This document shows, in pieces, positions 40,533 to 47,592 of a DNA stretch of 64,000 nt. How positions within the stretch are numbered: the first letter of the stretch is position 1; each line of letters begins with the position of its first letter. The notes under the pieces are model-generated. The model was not told the DNA's origin. It worked only from the letters and a program-made list of their open reading frames with translations, and did no database searches. The position numbers and the translations under genes were made by a program. Source of the stretch: a virus (lineage: Duplodnaviria > Caudoviricetes); the IMG/VR virus record IMGVR_UViG_3300033519_000155, positions 1 to 64,000 of that record; one strand, 5' to 3'.

Positions 40533-40771
40533 AATGACAGAGTTTGAAAAAGAAGTATTAGGAAAAGTAGATAGAATTTGCAGAGTTGCAACATACATAT
40601 TCGCTTTACTTCTATTGGACATAATAGGAAGTATTATATTTTTCTCAGCACCTAAATAACATGCAAAAAGACTGGAAAGAGCAGTAATCCAGTTTTTTTA
40701 TTTTTAATTATAATTATATTTCAATCACTAATAGTATAGCATAAAAGGTCTAAAAATCAATATGGAAATTT

Positions 40772-40807
40772 AAAAACCTCTCGGTTAATTACTCCGGGAG
40801 GTTTTTT
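40772..40807 (+). terminator. Terminator ending plus-strand block
   Basis: AAAAACCTCTCGG..CCGGGAGGTTTTTT. Confidence 0.8.
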
Positions 40808-41097
40808 GTGAGAAAGGGGAAAAAAAGACGAACTGGATAGTGTATATATTTTAGTATCTATATATTATCACAAGGTTTATTCTTTTTCAAGAGGTAATTT
40901 TAAATTTCTAAAATACCTATCCCGAAATAGAAATTTTCCAGAGAGAAACGAAATCTTTTAGGGGTAGGTGCTTCTATAACCTCTTAAAAGGTCAATTATT
41001 ACCTTCAGATATTCTAATGCAACTGAGAGCTTCACAGTTCGTTTTACGAGGGGTATGCTAAAAAGCGGTCGCTTCCCATATTTTTTATTAACTCTCT

Positions 41098-41210
41098 TAG
41101 TATATATACTATTAATTTTAATGTTTTTATTCATTTCTTTTAATTATTCCTTATATCTATTATCTTTTTCTTATATTAATTATTTATTTTATTATTAGTA
41201 TATATACTAA
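41098..41210. repeat. Two copies of palindrome TAGTATATATACTA (41098-41111, 41196-41209)
   Basis: Perfect 14-bp palindromes, 98 bp apart, in an AT-rich non-coding region. Confidence 0.75.
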
Positions 41211-41345
41211 GTAATATTATTTTATATTAATTATACTATCAATATATCCAGTTCTTGCAACATATAAAAAATAATATACCTATACCTCCGGGATTACACC
41301 TTTATTTAAAAATTTACTATAAATATTATAATAATGTGAAATTTA

Positions 41346-42806
41346 TTATAATAATATTTCTTCTGTTATAGGAACTAAATGTAAAGTAGTTAAATCCTCT
41401 GAGTATTTAAACATTCTCCCATAACCAATAAAATTTTTATAAGGAGAAGCTTTCTTTCTTGCTTTTCTTGTTTTGTAGGGTTTCCGTTTCTTTCGAGGTT
41501 TAACTATTATTTCCTCAGATATGATATGTGGAGTATAGTGTTTTTGATAAAGTTCTTCTTGTTCTGGTGTCAGGGGTAATGTTTTTTCTACACTGGGAGC
41601 TATTGTTTCAATAACTCCAGTTCTAGCATCTCCACAAGGATAAGTTTCACTCTTTTCCTTGCTTCGTGGAATTTCTTCCTTTACGGTATTACCGCAGGTT
41701 GCCGCACACAACATTCGATTTTTAAGGTTACGTGCAGAATTAACATTACGGTCTTCCTCCATACCACAATTTGAACATTTATAAACACGTTCATTTAACT
41801 TTTGTTTTTGCTCTGCTCCACAGCAGGAACAAATTTGACTTGTCTTATATTCATCAACAAAATAAACAGTTCTTCCTTCACGCTCTGCTAAAGTCTTAAA
41901 GGTGCGTAAGAACAAATCTTTTGATGGCATAACCATATTTTTATTACCTACAAATATCTGTCCTTCGGGATTATGCTGGAGAAAACTGTGGATTTTTTCT
42001 TCATATTTTCTTTTTAGGTATCTCTTTACTTTACGTTCCAGTTTATCAATTCTTATTGCTAAATCTCTTTTCTTACTGTTAGATAAGTATTTATGATTAT
42101 TTTTAGTTTTAAGAAGAGTTTTCAGGTGTTTTATTTTTTTGTTTGACCTGTCTAAATAAGGTATTATTTCAGGGGCAGTTTCCTTATATCCTTTGTCTGT
42201 TGTGATTAAGTCTATTCTGCCACAGTCAACAAATATTTTTTCTATGTTTTCAGATATTTCTATTGAATATGGGATATGAAAGTTTAAAAAGATTTCATTT
42301 GTATTTTTATTCTGGTAAACCACTAAATCTGTTATTTTACACTCAGGGACAGGGTGCTGTAAGTTAACAGTTATATTAGATTGGTTTTTTCCTGTATGCA
42401 AGCTAATAGTGTATTTGTCTATTAGGGTAAATGCTTTACGAGAGTAACGCATCGCAAAAATATATCCGGGTTCTTGCTGTTTTAACTGTTTGGCAGTTAC
42501 AGCGTTACCCCGAATATCTCTAAAAATATTACTATAGACATAGCTTGATACTAAAGATGATTGTTCAAACTTACGTATATGTTGTAAGGAATTGCTTTTT
42601 AAATGATTGAATATTTTATTATTCTGTAAATCTGATGGGTTCTTTACACTGTTACAGAAATGGTTATAAACCTCTCTACAATAGAAGGATAGTCTGATTA
42701 ACGTATTATGTAAATCTTTTGTGTAATAAGCTTTTATACTCTGAGTTTTAAAACCATCTATTTTCATTAAATAATTTTTACACCTTTTATTAAAATCTGT
42801 TGACAT
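41346..42806 (-). CDS. tnpB: Stand-alone TnpB-family RNA-guided nuclease homolog with altered RuvC site and about 120-aa C-terminal extension
   Basis: FVDCG (RuvC-I), IFVG at RuvC-II, VDEYKTSQICSCCG, YKCSNCG, DRNVNSARN; no transposase adjacent. Confidence 0.85.
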   Translation of the reverse strand: MSTDFNKRCKNYLMKIDGFKTQSIKAYYTKDLHNTLIRLSFYCREVYNHFCNSVKNPSDLQNNKIFNHLKSNSLQHIRKFEQSSLVSSYVYSNIFRDIRGNAVTAKQLKQQEPGYIFAMRYSRKAFTLIDKYTISLHTGKNQSNITVNLQHPVPECKITDLVVYQNKNTNEIFLNFHIPYSIEISENIEKIFVDCGRIDLITTDKGYKETAPEIIPYLDRSNKKIKHLKTLLKTKNNHKYLSNSKKRDLAIRIDKLERKVKRYLKRKYEEKIHSFLQHNPEGQIFVGNKNMVMPSKDLFLRTFKTLAEREGRTVYFVDEYKTSQICSCCGAEQKQKLNERVYKCSNCGMEEDRNVNSARNLKNRMLCAATCGNTVKEEIPRSKEKSETYPCGDARTGVIETIAPSVEKTLPLTPEQEELYQKHYTPHIISEEIIVKPRKKRKPYKTRKARKKASPYKNFIGYGRMFKYSEDLTTLHLVPITEEILL

Positions 42807-42828
42807 TTTTAATTGAATAAGGTATAAA
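42800..42828 (+). promoter_or_regulatory. Plus-strand promoter overlapping tnpB start (antisense to tnpB leader)
   Basis: TTGACA-17-TATAAA. Confidence 0.55.
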
Positions 42829-42930
42829 TGATGTATAACCTTTTTTCAATTTTTGTCGGATATTAGTTGAAAAAGGGTTGCTTGATTTTAACCCCTTATT
42901 TTCATCTAGTTTAGTGTAACGAATATTTTT

Positions 42931-42959
42931 ATCCTATCATACATTTTTTAGATTGTAAA
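42931..42959 (-). promoter_or_regulatory. Candidate tnpB promoter
   Basis: TTTACA-17-TAGGAT with the TG extension seen in other promoters of this genome. Confidence 0.5.
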
Positions 42960-43216
42960 TAATGTTTTAAAACTTTTTTTAAATTGTCGTTATATTATGT
43001 AAAATACAACGAGAAATAAATAAAAATTCTTTTCTCTGCCTCACGTAAAGAAAAGAATAAAACCGTTAATTTTTTAATGGACTGTCCTAATATAACACAA
43101 AAACCCATATGTTACAAGTTCGACTTACTTATAACCCTATGGGTTTTGTGGATAATTAAATTTTTCAATTAATTTAGATGTCTGTATCTAAATTATAGCA
43201 CAGGAAACTGTTAAAA

Positions 43217-44660: not shown

Positions 44661-46250
44661 TTAATCTAATGTAAAATAAAATGTTGTTCCTCTGTCAGGT
44701 TCGCTGTCAAACCAAATATTTCCTCCATGTTCTAAAATTATTTTCTTTACTAAAGAGAGTCCTATACCTGTGCCGGGATACCTTTTAGAGTGAATTCTAA
44801 AGAAAGGTTTACATAGATTTTTTGCACTCTCCATATTAAAACCAATTCCGTTATCACTAATAAAGTAAATATCTTGGTCTCCTGTATTAGACTTACCGAA
44901 TTGAATTTTTAATTTTCTGTAAACATCTCTATACTTTAGACTATTACTTATAAAATTTTCAAACACCGAGCGAAATAATGTTTCATCTACTTCTGCATAT
45001 AAATCTTCTTGGATAATTATTTCAGGAAATTCCCTTGTGTCGAGTTTTAACAGGGTGTTGTAACACTGTTTAAATAATAAACTCAAATTTACTTTTTGAA
45101 TATTGAGAGAAGCTTTCCCGATTTTTAGAAGTCCTATGAGTGAGTGAAGAGTTTCTAATATATGGTGCAGTTCTAAATGAATACTGCCCATAATTTTCAT
45201 ATGTTTTTCGCAGTTTTTTTCTTCCTCATTTAGCAATAGATGAAAATACTGGTCTATTGTTTGTATGGGTGTTTGAACATCATGAGATAAAGCGGAAACA
45301 TAATTTTCCAGTTCAAGATTTTTATATGTAATTTCTTGGGTTCTTTCGGTAATAGTTTCTTCTAAATTTTCTTTTGCCTGTATAAGAGTATCTTCAAATT
45401 GTTTTTTAAGTATATAGAACCCTACTAATTCTGCACAAATTTGTAGAATATCAATAATATCCTGTGATATGTTTAGTTCTTCAACGGTATTATCAAATTC
45501 TAAAAATCCCCATAGCTTATCTTCTATTATTATAGGTAATAATACTAAAGTTCTTACTTCTAAACTTTTTAAGAAAGCAAATTCTTCCTCAGAAAGATGC
45601 TTTGCATGGGTAATAAGTGGTCGTTTTTCCTCACATAGTAATTTTAAAGTTTTAAAGGTATCACAGTCTATTTTTTGTAATTTAGGGTCTAACCCAACAA
45701 AACGAATTCCTGTTTTACAGGTTTCAATAATTTTTTGTAAGTATTTTTCTTTTTCAAAATACTGAAATATACAACAAGAGGTAAATGCTGAAACATCAAG
45801 CATATGTTTTAATCCTGCTTCTAATGCAAGAATAAGTCCACCATTTTTTAAGAGTGCCTTAGAACATTTGTATAAAGCACTCTTATAATTTAATAAAGTT
45901 TTTAGCTTTTTTTCTGATAAATTTTTAGTTGTAACGTCTTTTACAGCTACTAAAAAATAATCTTTGCGTGAATTACTTATATTAGCTACTTTAAACTCTC
46001 CGTAAAATTTTTGTCCACCTTTTTTTATTTGAACTGCTTCAAATTCTGACATTTCTTTAGTTATTTTATTTCGGAAAATAGAAAAATCATATTCTCCTAT
46101 TAAACATCTTTTGTCTAATCTATAGAGAACTTCTGCTTTTCTATTTGCATATGTAATCTGCCCTTTTTCAACAACAAATGTTGCTTCAGGATACTCCTCA
46201 AAAATTTCATAAAAATTGTCAATCTTTTTCCTAAATAGAAACCCTAGCAT
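44661..46250 (-). CDS. Cytoplasmic sensor histidine kinase (PAS-GAF-HisKA-HATPase)
   Basis: PAS (FEEYPEATFVVEKGQITYANRKAE), GAF (LVLLPIIIEDKLWGFLEF), H-box SHDVQTPI, N-box NFISNSLKY, DNGIGF, PFFRIH, GTGIGL, HGGNIW. Start placed at ATG 46250 (track start 46364 overlaps neighbour). Confidence 0.95.
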   Translation of the reverse strand: MLGFLFRKKIDNFYEIFEEYPEATFVVEKGQITYANRKAEVLYRLDKRCLIGEYDFSIFRNKITKEMSEFEAVQIKKGGQKFYGEFKVANISNSRKDYFLVAVKDVTTKNLSEKKLKTLLNYKSALYKCSKALLKNGGLILALEAGLKHMLDVSAFTSCCIFQYFEKEKYLQKIIETCKTGIRFVGLDPKLQKIDCDTFKTLKLLCEEKRPLITHAKHLSEEEFAFLKSLEVRTLVLLPIIIEDKLWGFLEFDNTVEELNISQDIIDILQICAELVGFYILKKQFEDTLIQAKENLEETITERTQEITYKNLELENYVSALSHDVQTPIQTIDQYFHLLLNEEEKNCEKHMKIMGSIHLELHHILETLHSLIGLLKIGKASLNIQKVNLSLLFKQCYNTLLKLDTREFPEIIIQEDLYAEVDETLFRSVFENFISNSLKYRDVYRKLKIQFGKSNTGDQDIYFISDNGIGFNMESAKNLCKPFFRIHSKRYPGTGIGLSLVKKIILEHGGNIWFDSEPDRGTTFYFTLD

Positions 46251-46264
46251 AGAAACACCAACTT

Positions 46265-46645
46265 CTATTTTCCACCCGGAAAGAATTTTTCCCAATTTGT
46301 TAAAATATAAATGACTATTGCTCCAAATCCACCACCAACAGCATATAATACTTTTTGATACCACGCAATATTATTGTCCTGTTGTTTATTTCCGTTCCTT
46401 ACCATCTCCTGTAATAATTCTATATTAGCGTTCTCGGCAGTTCTAACAGCAAGGTCTTGTTTTCGAGCAATTTCAGCTACAACAGCAGTTAGTGTATTTA
46501 CTGCGACTTTCATTTCAACTATATTACCAGAAAAATACTCATACGCTCGAACCATCATAGCAATATCCTGATTGCTAATATTCTTATTTGGGTCTATTTG
46601 AGTTATTGGTGTCTGCGTGTTCTGTAAATTTGTCTGAGAGTCCAA
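46265..46645 (-). CDS. Coiled-coil protein with single C-terminal TM helix (XhlA/holin-like)
   Basis: Coiled coil followed by VLYAVGGGFGAIVIYIL; probable TTG start 46645 after GAGGTG (track start 46678). Confidence 0.6.
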   Translation of the reverse strand: MDSQTNLQNTQTPITQIDPNKNISNQDIAMMVRAYEYFSGNIVEMKVAVNTLTAVVAEIARKQDLAVRTAENANIELLQEMVRNGNKQQDNNIAWYQKVLYAVGGGFGAIVIYILTNWEKFFPGGK

Positions 46646-47303
46646 AGCTGTCACCTCTTTTGTATATTGTATTTGCAAATCCTAATAGATTATCACGACT
46701 GGAATTAATTTCGTCAAGAGATAAATCACCATAAAAACATAAAGGTGAAGAATTTCTTTCTTTCTGTTCATTCGCTGCCCAAGTTCCACTCCATTCATCA
46801 GGAATATCTAATTTAGTTTTACTTAATTTTTCTTCTGTTTTTCCAAAATCGCAATAAGAAAGGGCATCAGCAAAAGTTTTTACAGGTTTTGTTACTTTTA
46901 TACCTTTAAAAACATTATCTAATGCTTTAAGGTCAAAAGGTTTATGTAAGTAATCTACAATATTTAATTTCTTCATTATAACTTCTGAAATTGGACATTC
47001 ATCACTAAAACCAGTCATTAAGCAAATTTTAACATTTGGATTTATTGCATTTAAATATTTAACAACATCTTCACCTGTCATTCCCGGCATACGATAATCT
47101 GTGAGAACTAAATCTAATTCTTTAGAGTGTTCTTCAAAATAATCAATACCCAATTCTGGAGAAAGCATTGTTATTATTTCATAATTATCTTCAAATACTT
47201 CTTTCATTACTTGGAGGAAGAAAATATCATCATCTATCATTAGTATTCTTTTTCTATTACAGTTAATTGATTTATTAATTTTATTTTTTCCTTTTATTAT
47301 CAT
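46584..47303 (-). CDS. Response-regulator receiver protein with unrecognised C-terminal tail
   Basis: ILMIDDD, LTDYRMPGMTG (phospho-Asp), LMTG, KPF; start ATG 47303 after AAGGAGG. Confidence 0.93.
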   Translation of the reverse strand: MIIKGKNKINKSINCNRKRILMIDDDIFFLQVMKEVFEDNYEIITMLSPELGIDYFEEHSKELDLVLTDYRMPGMTGEDVVKYLNAINPNVKICLMTGFSDECPISEVIMKKLNIVDYLHKPFDLKALDNVFKGIKVTKPVKTFADALSYCDFGKTEEKLSKTKLDIPDEWSGTWAANEQKERNSSPLCFYGDLSLDEINSSRDNLLGFANTIYKRGDSFGLSDKFTEHADTNNSNRPK

Positions 47304-47319
47304 TATTCTTACCTCCTTT

Positions 47320-47592
47320 TTATGTAATATCAACGTCTATGTCTAAAACGCCAAGGATAGTTGTCTGAATATTAATTTGTGTTTCAATAATGTTAACTTC
47401 AGTTCTTATATTGTTTATATAAGCAACCATGTCTAAATATTCCTGTTCAATATAACCAAAATCTGACCACTTATGTAAATTTAATTGTTTATACTCAGGA
47501 TATAGGTTTGTTATTTGTGCATAAGCTTGGTCTTTGAGAAAGGTAATTCTTATAACTTTCCACTCTTCCAGAGTGTGTTGTGTGTAATACAT
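47320..47592 (-). CDS. Tail-fibre-associated small protein
   Basis: ORF track; position after the fibre gene. Confidence 0.55.
   Translation of the reverse strand: MYYTQHTLEEWKVIRITFLKDQAYAQITNLYPEYKQLNLHKWSDFGYIEQEYLDMVAYINNIRTEVNIIETQINIQTTILGVLDIDVDIT

Follow-up and report, generated by a model that had tools for sequence, protein, structure and literature searches.

TldRs are natural RNA-guided transcription factors that have been recognised only recently, and the phage-borne ones studied so far belong to temperate enterobacterial phages and are concerned with flagella remodelling. They are TnpB-like, nuclease-dead repressors with fliC-, oppF- and csrA-associated clades, some of them in prophages, and they use scaffolds of 97-100 nt and guides of 9-16 nt (Wiegand et al., PMC10705468). 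A second relevant group is formed by the RIIr branches of TnpB, in which Gly stands in for the RuvC-II Glu and another Glu points towards the active site; RIIr-5 has this Gly and RIIr-4 is enriched in viruses (Altae-Tran et al., PMC10691335). The alternate Glu position is also found in Fanzors, and the authors of the TldR study warn of this relocation (PMC10705468). Here we describe a tnpB-derived gene at positions 41346-42806 of the window, which is the first 64 kb of the 86.9-kb IMG/VR record IMGVR_UViG_3300033519_000155, a tailed-phage sequence without end repeats and estimated to be ~54% complete. In our judgement there is an even chance that the gene encodes an independently domesticated RNA-guided DNA binder working like a TldR.

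41346-42806, minus strand: tnpB-derived open reading frame (ORF) of 486 codons; one open frame without frameshifts or stops
41766-41831, minus strand: intact C4 zinc ribbon (Cys326, Cys329, Cys344, Cys347); cysteine columns invariant in the homologue alignment, and within the Pfam TNB domain

The product of 41346-42806 is a TnpB-family protein with a TnpB fold. It matched Pfam PF07282 (Cas12f1-like TNB domain, E 1.2e-16), NCBIfam guided_TnpB over residues 25-364 (E 2.4e-16; 60 bits, under the curated cut-off of 100 bits) and the PHROG 506 'transposase' family (8e-27). An AlphaFold2 model built on a 70-sequence alignment was confident for residues 14-370. The best Foldseek matches to the modelled core were ISFba1 TnpB (8iaz), ISDra2 TnpB (8h1j) and the mimivirus Fanzor2 (9b0l), with E values from 5e-15 to 5e-13; Cas12f was also among the best matches, which ranged from 5e-15 to 1e-12. 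The WED-REC-RuvC-zinc ribbon/TNB architecture is recognisable both by profile and by fold, and fold, domain order and zinc ribbon are shared with canonical IS200/IS605 TnpBs (ISDra2, 8h1j/8exa; ISFba1, 8iaz). Fanzor2 is a likeness of fold; the carrier here, however, is a tailed bacteriophage and not a eukaryote or giant virus. The called gene is 473 aa long and begins at Met14 (42767), which is probably the true start, as its one close relative (P0003) also begins at the equivalent position. The ribosome-binding site ahead of Met14 is weak in the window.

42225-42227, minus strand: GAC codon of RuvC-I Asp194 (FVDCG), intact; the column is D in 68/70 homologues
41946-41948, minus strand: Gly287 (IFVG) at the canonical RuvC-II Glu place, by alignment
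41850-41852, minus strand: Glu319 (VDEYKTS), relocated RuvC-II glutamate, by alignment; class described in PMC10691335
41745-41747, minus strand: AAT codon of Asn354, which stands where RuvC-III has its catalytic Asp (DRD to DRN), by alignment

Active-site columns were judged in the 70-sequence homologue alignment, and each of the residues that a first-pass annotation of the sequence had singled out was found as described. The canonical RuvC D-E-D triad is incomplete: Asp194 is present, Glu has become Gly287 and the last Asp has become Asn354. The canonical RuvC-II Glu is kept in 63 of the 70 aligned sequences, while the window protein has a gap or Gly in that column. All four of the other homologues that lack it (P0020, P0119, P0140 and P0113) carry 'DE' at the Glu319 site, compared with 0/63 of the canonical sequences, and in these four as in the window protein the relocated 'DE' lies two residues before the 'TS' that precedes the zinc ribbon. 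The relocation is thus real. Judged by alignment, Gly287 and Glu319 correspond to the rearrangement known from the RIIr branches (Gly at the canonical place, another Glu in the loop that follows the next strand), an arrangement shared with Fanzors and IS607-type TnpBs. A quickly made maximum-likelihood tree placed the window protein and P0003 as sister to P0020, the nearest homologue outside the pair (SH-aLRT, an approximate likelihood ratio test, 98), and all six sequences with relocated Glu grouped together (SH-aLRT 87). Given the long branches, this grouping with RIIr-like sequences is tentative.

The change at RuvC-III is of another kind. Asn354 falls in the column of the second DRD Asp (D361 in ISDra2), and Asn was found there only in the window protein and its close relative among the 70 aligned sequences; one other sequence has Lys. 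P0020 retains DRD. RIIr, Fanzor and IS607-type proteins keep the RuvC-III Asp and are taken as active; the window protein has Asn in its place. We infer that the window TnpB has lost nuclease activity. By the alignment rule of the TldR authors it retains fewer than two canonical DED residues (PMC10705468), and a DED change conserved across a clade, as in TldRs, is seen in the Asn354 of both members, the other non-canonical position being the Glu relocation. It differs from TldRs in that only one residue is truly lost, since Glu is relocated and not absent.

A somewhat unlikely alternative is that the protein still cuts or nicks DNA under RNA guidance with an active site rearranged at two places (Asp194, Glu319, Asn354), and that the phage keeps it for homing or to attack competing phages, plasmids or the DNA of the host. 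The RuvC fold and zinc ribbon are whole and strongly conserved, P0020 keeps DRD, and there are whole TnpB branches with conserved RuvC-III substitutions (e.g. Asp to His) for which retained activity was inferred (PMC10691335). However, Asn lacks the charge that the metal-binding Asp provides, and mutating any DED residue abolishes cleavage by TnpB (PMC10705468). Neither insertion sequence (IS) ends, mobility or empty-site alleles of this locus nor a self or non-self target were found, as described below. The first-pass annotation had offered a phage-competition nuclease as one option; Asn354 weakens it.

The same annotation called the gene transposase-free and proposed that it was domesticated. 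Searches of 5.8 billion proteins, with an exhaustive profile search of 1.84 billion cluster representatives, gave P0003 as the sole close relative. It is 72-74% identical and lies on a 6.2-kb contig (L001) from another sample. The nearest homologue beyond it is 32% identical, and the window protein is no sequence relative of the described TldR clades. A search with the C-terminal tail returned P0003 alone, and a scan of viral-contig proteins and two DNA patterns gave no further relatives. A 19-mer search of metagenome contigs gave five chance matches, in high-GC contigs without tnpB. L001 is syntenic with the window on both sides, with the end of the endolysin gene and a non-coding stretch, a promoter, tnpB, a conserved non-coding region and a module of small plus-strand genes.

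Over the codons of residues 14-365 the synonymous divergence (dS) between window and relative is 1.36 and the ratio of non-synonymous to synonymous divergence (dN/dS) is 0.15. The DRN codons read GAC CGT AAT in the window and GAT AGA AAT in the relative, so that Asp352 and Arg353 have changed synonymously around an unaltered Asn354 codon. In the 86.9-kb record tnpB is single copy, and no Y1 transposase (PF01797), serine recombinase (PF00239), integrase or IS ends for tnpB were found in this ~54% complete sequence. No empty-site alleles were seen in the relative or in contigs from sequencing runs, most of which were identical fragments, with one variant ~90% identical over 41544-41692. Two 'joints' in run X5 were considered as empty sites and rejected, having sides of <30 nt on terminator-like sequence. 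A mobile IS200/IS605 or IS607 element would be expected to show TnpA or IS ends, and several copies or a variable site; the locus, in contrast to canonical IS200/IS605 TnpBs, has one copy with no TnpA and no left or right end found. The same site in the relative, dS above 1 and dN/dS of 0.15 point to an old, selected resident and not to a fresh IS. Within the limits of the incomplete record, the terms 'transposase-free' and 'domesticated' are supported. Descent from TnpB, absence of a transposase, a fixed locus and carriage by a phage are features shared with TldRs. One difference is that no integrase was found in the 87 kb of this phage.

These data also bear on the view that tnpB is a functionless, decaying remnant of an old IS200/IS605 or IS607 insertion, which is extremely improbable and which we strongly disfavour. 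Such a remnant could account for the missing transposase, one lost catalytic residue, a frame that overruns the usual end and the weak ribosome-binding site before Met14 in the window. Against this, the frame is full-length in both phages, with neither frameshifts nor stops, despite saturated synonymous sites (dS 1.0-1.4), and core and tail have dN/dS values of 0.15 and 0.20.

One further sequence touches on the relative. A 672-nt metagenome contig (L005) carries at 408-525 ~118 nt nearly identical to the RuvC-I region of the L001 tnpB, with the catalytic Asp read as Glu. This piece shares the reading frame of an unrelated ORF, into which it is joined and whose C-terminus is hydrolase-like; the contig is probably a chimera of assembly.

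41588-41713, minus strand: five-hairpin RNA element within the ORF (codons ~365-407), candidate guide-RNA scaffold; from fold z-score, dS and conservation of pairs

The frame extends through a structured RNA. The RNA of 41586-41716 folds into five hairpins in a 125-nt block (-39.1 kcal/mol, z -4.9 against shuffles), and the corresponding stretch of the relative takes the same five-hairpin fold (z -3.6). In a sliding scan of the locus the block was the sole strong outlier (z -5.5); a window overlapping its 3′ half reached z -3.5 and the other windows ranged from +0.8 to -2.8. Over residues 366-410 dS falls to 0.15, with dN/dS of 0.94, and this synonymous suppression is significant by Fisher's test against the core (p 2e-7) and against the rest of the tail (p 3e-4). 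The protein is unconstrained in these codons and the constraint acts at the nucleotide level. The hairpins comprise 40 pairs, with 97.5% of cells paired, and two pairs of the third hairpin are compensatory. In a third, partial variant from another sequencing run, 7/9 of the listed changes in the block are non-synonymous and both changes in the last hairpin, which is the one named in the first-pass annotation, retain pairing via G-U.

The block starts directly downstream of the RuvC-III codons, as the guide RNAs of TnpB and TldR do, and this start is shared with canonical IS200/IS605 TnpBs. Its 125 nt are close to the 97-100 nt of TldR scaffolds (PMC10705468), which likewise overlap the 3′ end of the gene. 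By eye, a CC(U)UGUGGAGA motif is common to the block and to the 3′ regions of distant TnpBs of IS605 type (C-terminal sequence ...HACGE...SLKQE). However, the resemblance to omega-RNA proposed in the first-pass annotation is not borne out as homology. A covariance model (R1) was built from the 3′ regions of five distant TnpB relatives and showed good covariation of its own (17/25 pairs). The CCUGU motif pairs with a downstream GCAGG in these relatives and with an upstream segment in the window, so the RNA architecture differs between the two. No match to the block was found in Rfam. The view of the block as a guide-RNA scaffold draws on its place, size, structure and constraint, and we infer it on those grounds.

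41349-41576, minus strand: C-terminal extension, residues 411-486, under protein-level selection (dS 0.98, dN/dS 0.20)
41436-41501, minus strand: basic patch, residues 436-457, with 13 K/R in 22; PRKKRKPYK conserved in the relative

The protein extends ~121 aa past the usual TnpB end, and the frame runs 230 nt beyond the RNA element. Residues 411-486 are a translated, selected protein segment (Fisher's test of non-synonymous against synonymous changes, p 4e-7), and the RNA over these codons has no unusual structure (z -0.7). The earlier description of a read-through tail passing through an omega-RNA-like scaffold applies, as regards constrained, structured RNA, to the first ~45 tail codons; the last 76 codons are selected as protein and lack RNA structure. 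The very basic patch noted there is real (PRKKRKPYK...RKK), and the last 30 residues are well conserved in the relative. The basic patch has no more than a resemblance to a nuclear localisation signal; Fanzors usually carry such a signal, and introns. In the AlphaFold2 model residues 411-486 have predicted local distance difference test scores of <50 except for a helix at 414-423, and the segment may be disordered. Searches for tail look-alikes gave none at a useful feature or structure score. P0041, a 176-aa fragment with DRD, was considered as a tail homologue and rejected, the alignment into the tail being too weak. In this arrangement the window protein departs from canonical TnpBs, where Glu and Asp are in place and the ORF does not run through the RNA, and from TldRs, many of which are truncated. 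It keeps the zinc ribbon and RuvC-III region and has a C-terminal extension of ~120 aa instead.

41568-41587, minus strand: expected place of a TnpB-type 3′ guide, should the block be the scaffold; conservation drops after the last hairpin

Mapping of the presumed guide to host or phage, which the first-pass annotation had suggested as a check, gave no credible target. Searches of the phage record with exact 12/13-mers and with 18-mers at <=3 mismatches returned low-complexity noise only; guides of 9-11 nt are too short to be tested by sequence search. A 20-mer scan of 185,579 genomes, one per prokaryotic species, gave a single 22-nt match, in the lysyl-tRNA synthetase gene (lysS) of a Lachnospiraceae metagenome-assembled genome. 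It was rejected as a target; chance alone predicts about as many matches, and the phage has a far lower GC content than this genome. A guide match to a promoter with an adjoining transposon-adjacent motif, as seen for TldRs, was not found in the 86.9-kb record, and the locus lacks a target-paralogue gene of the TldR kind.

It is rather unlikely that RNA-guided targeting has been abandoned altogether, leaving a general nucleic-acid-binding or structural phage protein that acts via its basic tail, with the in-ORF RNA regulating its own message in cis, by way of stability, translation or binding of the mRNA by the protein itself. In favour of this are the selection on a strongly basic tail, the location of the RNA within coding sequence and the lack, 3′ of it, of the conservation that a guide to a shared target would show. 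But the WED, REC and RuvC core, which holds guide RNA and target DNA, is modelled confidently by AlphaFold2 and is under strong purifying selection along its full length (dN/dS 0.15).

We return to the evenly poised reading of a TldR-like binder. The protein would be a phage-resident, immobilised descendant of a RuvC-II-rearranged TnpB, with Gly for Glu and Glu319 as replacement, and on the branch leading to the two phages the RuvC-III Asp would also have changed to Asn354. The RNA bound by the protein would be the five-hairpin element towards the 3′ end of tnpB itself, and the sequence 3′ of this scaffold would serve as guide. The protein would hold matching DNA with little or no cutting, as an RNA-guided binder or repressor. 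The basic C-terminal extension most likely would add non-specific binding of nucleic acid or of a partner. Immobility, selection and the conservation of Asn354 agree with the TldR-like binder proposed at first pass; the guide target that it implies was not found.

Several observations weigh against this reading. As regards the active site, only one catalytic residue is truly lost, and conserved RuvC-III substitutions can retain activity, as argued in PMC10691335. As regards the RNA, covariation between the two sequences is not significant (135/500 shuffles reach the same level), R1 does not match the window block (best E 2.3), and no separate promoter for a guide RNA was seen by eye inside the ORF. 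The presumed guide stretch differs between the two phages, it has no target in the 86.9-kb record (matches of at least 13 nt; 18-mers with <=3 mismatches), and the genome scan gave the single lysS match. Finally, no TldR-type partner gene is conserved beside tnpB, a helix-turn-helix (HTH) gene being present upstream in the relative and absent from the window. As a guide-target pair and repression are not demonstrated, the window protein is not filed as a TldR.

If the reading is true, this would be an independent taming event from the relocated-Glu branch of TnpB, and a tamed TnpB in a large uncultured microbial-mat phage without sign of lysogeny. The structural route would be opposite to the truncation of TldRs, consisting of a single Asp-to-Asn change and a gained tail. 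Particular to this TnpB is the combination of both active-site changes, an ORF through the RNA element and a selected basic tail. The locus is also a clean natural case of a stretch selected at the RNA level within an ORF, with both flanks selected as protein. Being compact (473 aa) and inactive or altered by nature, such a TnpB could, along with its scaffold, be a candidate basis for programmable DNA-binding tools, and Asn354 in a relocated-Glu background offers a simple test of active-site tolerance. The value of the locus is limited by there being only two sequences, with no target found.

42931-42959, minus strand: sigma-70-like promoter TTTACA-17-TAGGAT with upstream TG; the relative has a promoter with 5 substitutions
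42938-42961, no strand assigned: 24-bp stretch identical to genome 74205-74228 (L011 10205-10228), spanning the promoter -35 element and spacer
42868-42894, minus strand: GC hairpin and T-run in the tnpB leader, terminator- or attenuator-like; absent from the relative
43015-43190, minus strand: small-RNA-like unit right after the endolysin stop, with TTGATT-17-TATAAT and TG, a long hairpin with a 13-bp stem and an intrinsic terminator (z -4.0)

The position of tnpB between the lysis cassette and the small plus-strand module is conserved in both phages. The gene had been placed just after the endolysin. It does lie downstream of the endolysin gene, but 410 nt away, with the small-RNA-like unit and its own promoter between. 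The TTTACA-17-TAGGAT promoter probably drives tnpB, judging from its sequence and place. The second copy of the 24-bp stretch lies 31 kb away in a minus-strand TTTACA-17-TAG(G/T)AT promoter, 7 nt upstream of the portal ATG, so that the portal mRNA would be nearly leaderless. From the sequence, the repeat reads as a duplicated promoter core, and the shared core suggests that tnpB is expressed with the head genes. Such co-expression with structural genes would speak for a general nucleic-acid-binding or structural protein that has given up RNA-guided targeting. It also enters a long shot on the side of RNA guidance, whereby in a large phage of virulent type TnpB would be an RNA-guided regulator of phage or host transcription, with the scaffold translated as a protein linker (dual coding), a new basic tail being needed and the 24-bp promoter core tying the gene to the late programme. 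The 24-mer together with plus-strand 42800-42937 was also considered as guide and scaffold. This was rejected; 42800-42937 is not conserved in the relative, and the 24-mer is there the same promoter with 5 substitutions.

The two loci differ in structure at a single place, the tnpB leader. Between promoter and tnpB the relative has three small genes (L001 503-1339), where the window instead has ~160 nt with the hairpin. The first of these (168 aa) has weak HTH matches (UPF0122/YlxM, sigma-70 region 4, resolvase HTH), and the third shares 20 nt with the beginning of tnpB. A dead TnpB with an HTH or sigma-like partner would be of interest, but the L001 matches are weak. The small-RNA-like unit, between endolysin and tnpB, is served by a strong promoter located where the endolysin gene ends, and L001 keeps the unit with insertions of 61 nt and 39 nt, one of which repeats a 19-nt motif (GGGTTTTTGTGTTATATTR).

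On the other side, the ~250-nt non-coding block after the tnpB stop (41095-41345) is 92% identical to L001 and thus better conserved than tnpB. It is very AT-rich, has promoter-like sites on both strands and contains two perfect 16-bp palindromes (TTAGTATATATACTAA) at 41096-41111 and 41195-41210, 98 bp apart. It was rejected as an RNA scaffold, its first half not being RNA-structured (z +1.1), and looks like a DNA-level regulatory, operator or origin-type element rather than RNA. Further on, at 40770-40890 on the minus strand, there is a TTGAAA-17-TAATAT promoter with TG and, ~80 nt beyond it, a hairpin terminator for both directions; L001 keeps the arrangement at ~84% identity. This may be a short non-coding RNA between convergent units.

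The record encodes a family-A DNA polymerase, an amidase/transglycosylase endolysin, a tail-fibre protein and a histidine kinase with a receiver protein, and the portal, protease and major head protein genes lie outside the window in the same record. The kinase is of PAS/GAF type and stands with the receiver-domain protein among tail-fibre and lysis genes, at window 44661-47333 (PHROG kinase 1e-31; Pfam Response_reg 4e-17). The public sequencing runs that carry the stretch are microbial-mat metagenomes, with no RNA run among them. As a clue to the host the DNA polymerase was uninformative, its best phage matches being only ~30% identical. Near-consensus sigma-70 promoters (TTGACA, TG-extended TATTAT/TATAAT) followed by strong GGAGG ribosome-binding sites were found at window 12018, 28731, 36117, 37055 and 38080 and at genome 77090. 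Two copies of this promoter family have ~43 nt in common, and the same element occurs in L001. These promoters and GGAGG sites suggest that the host uses classical sigma-70 and Shine-Dalgarno signals.

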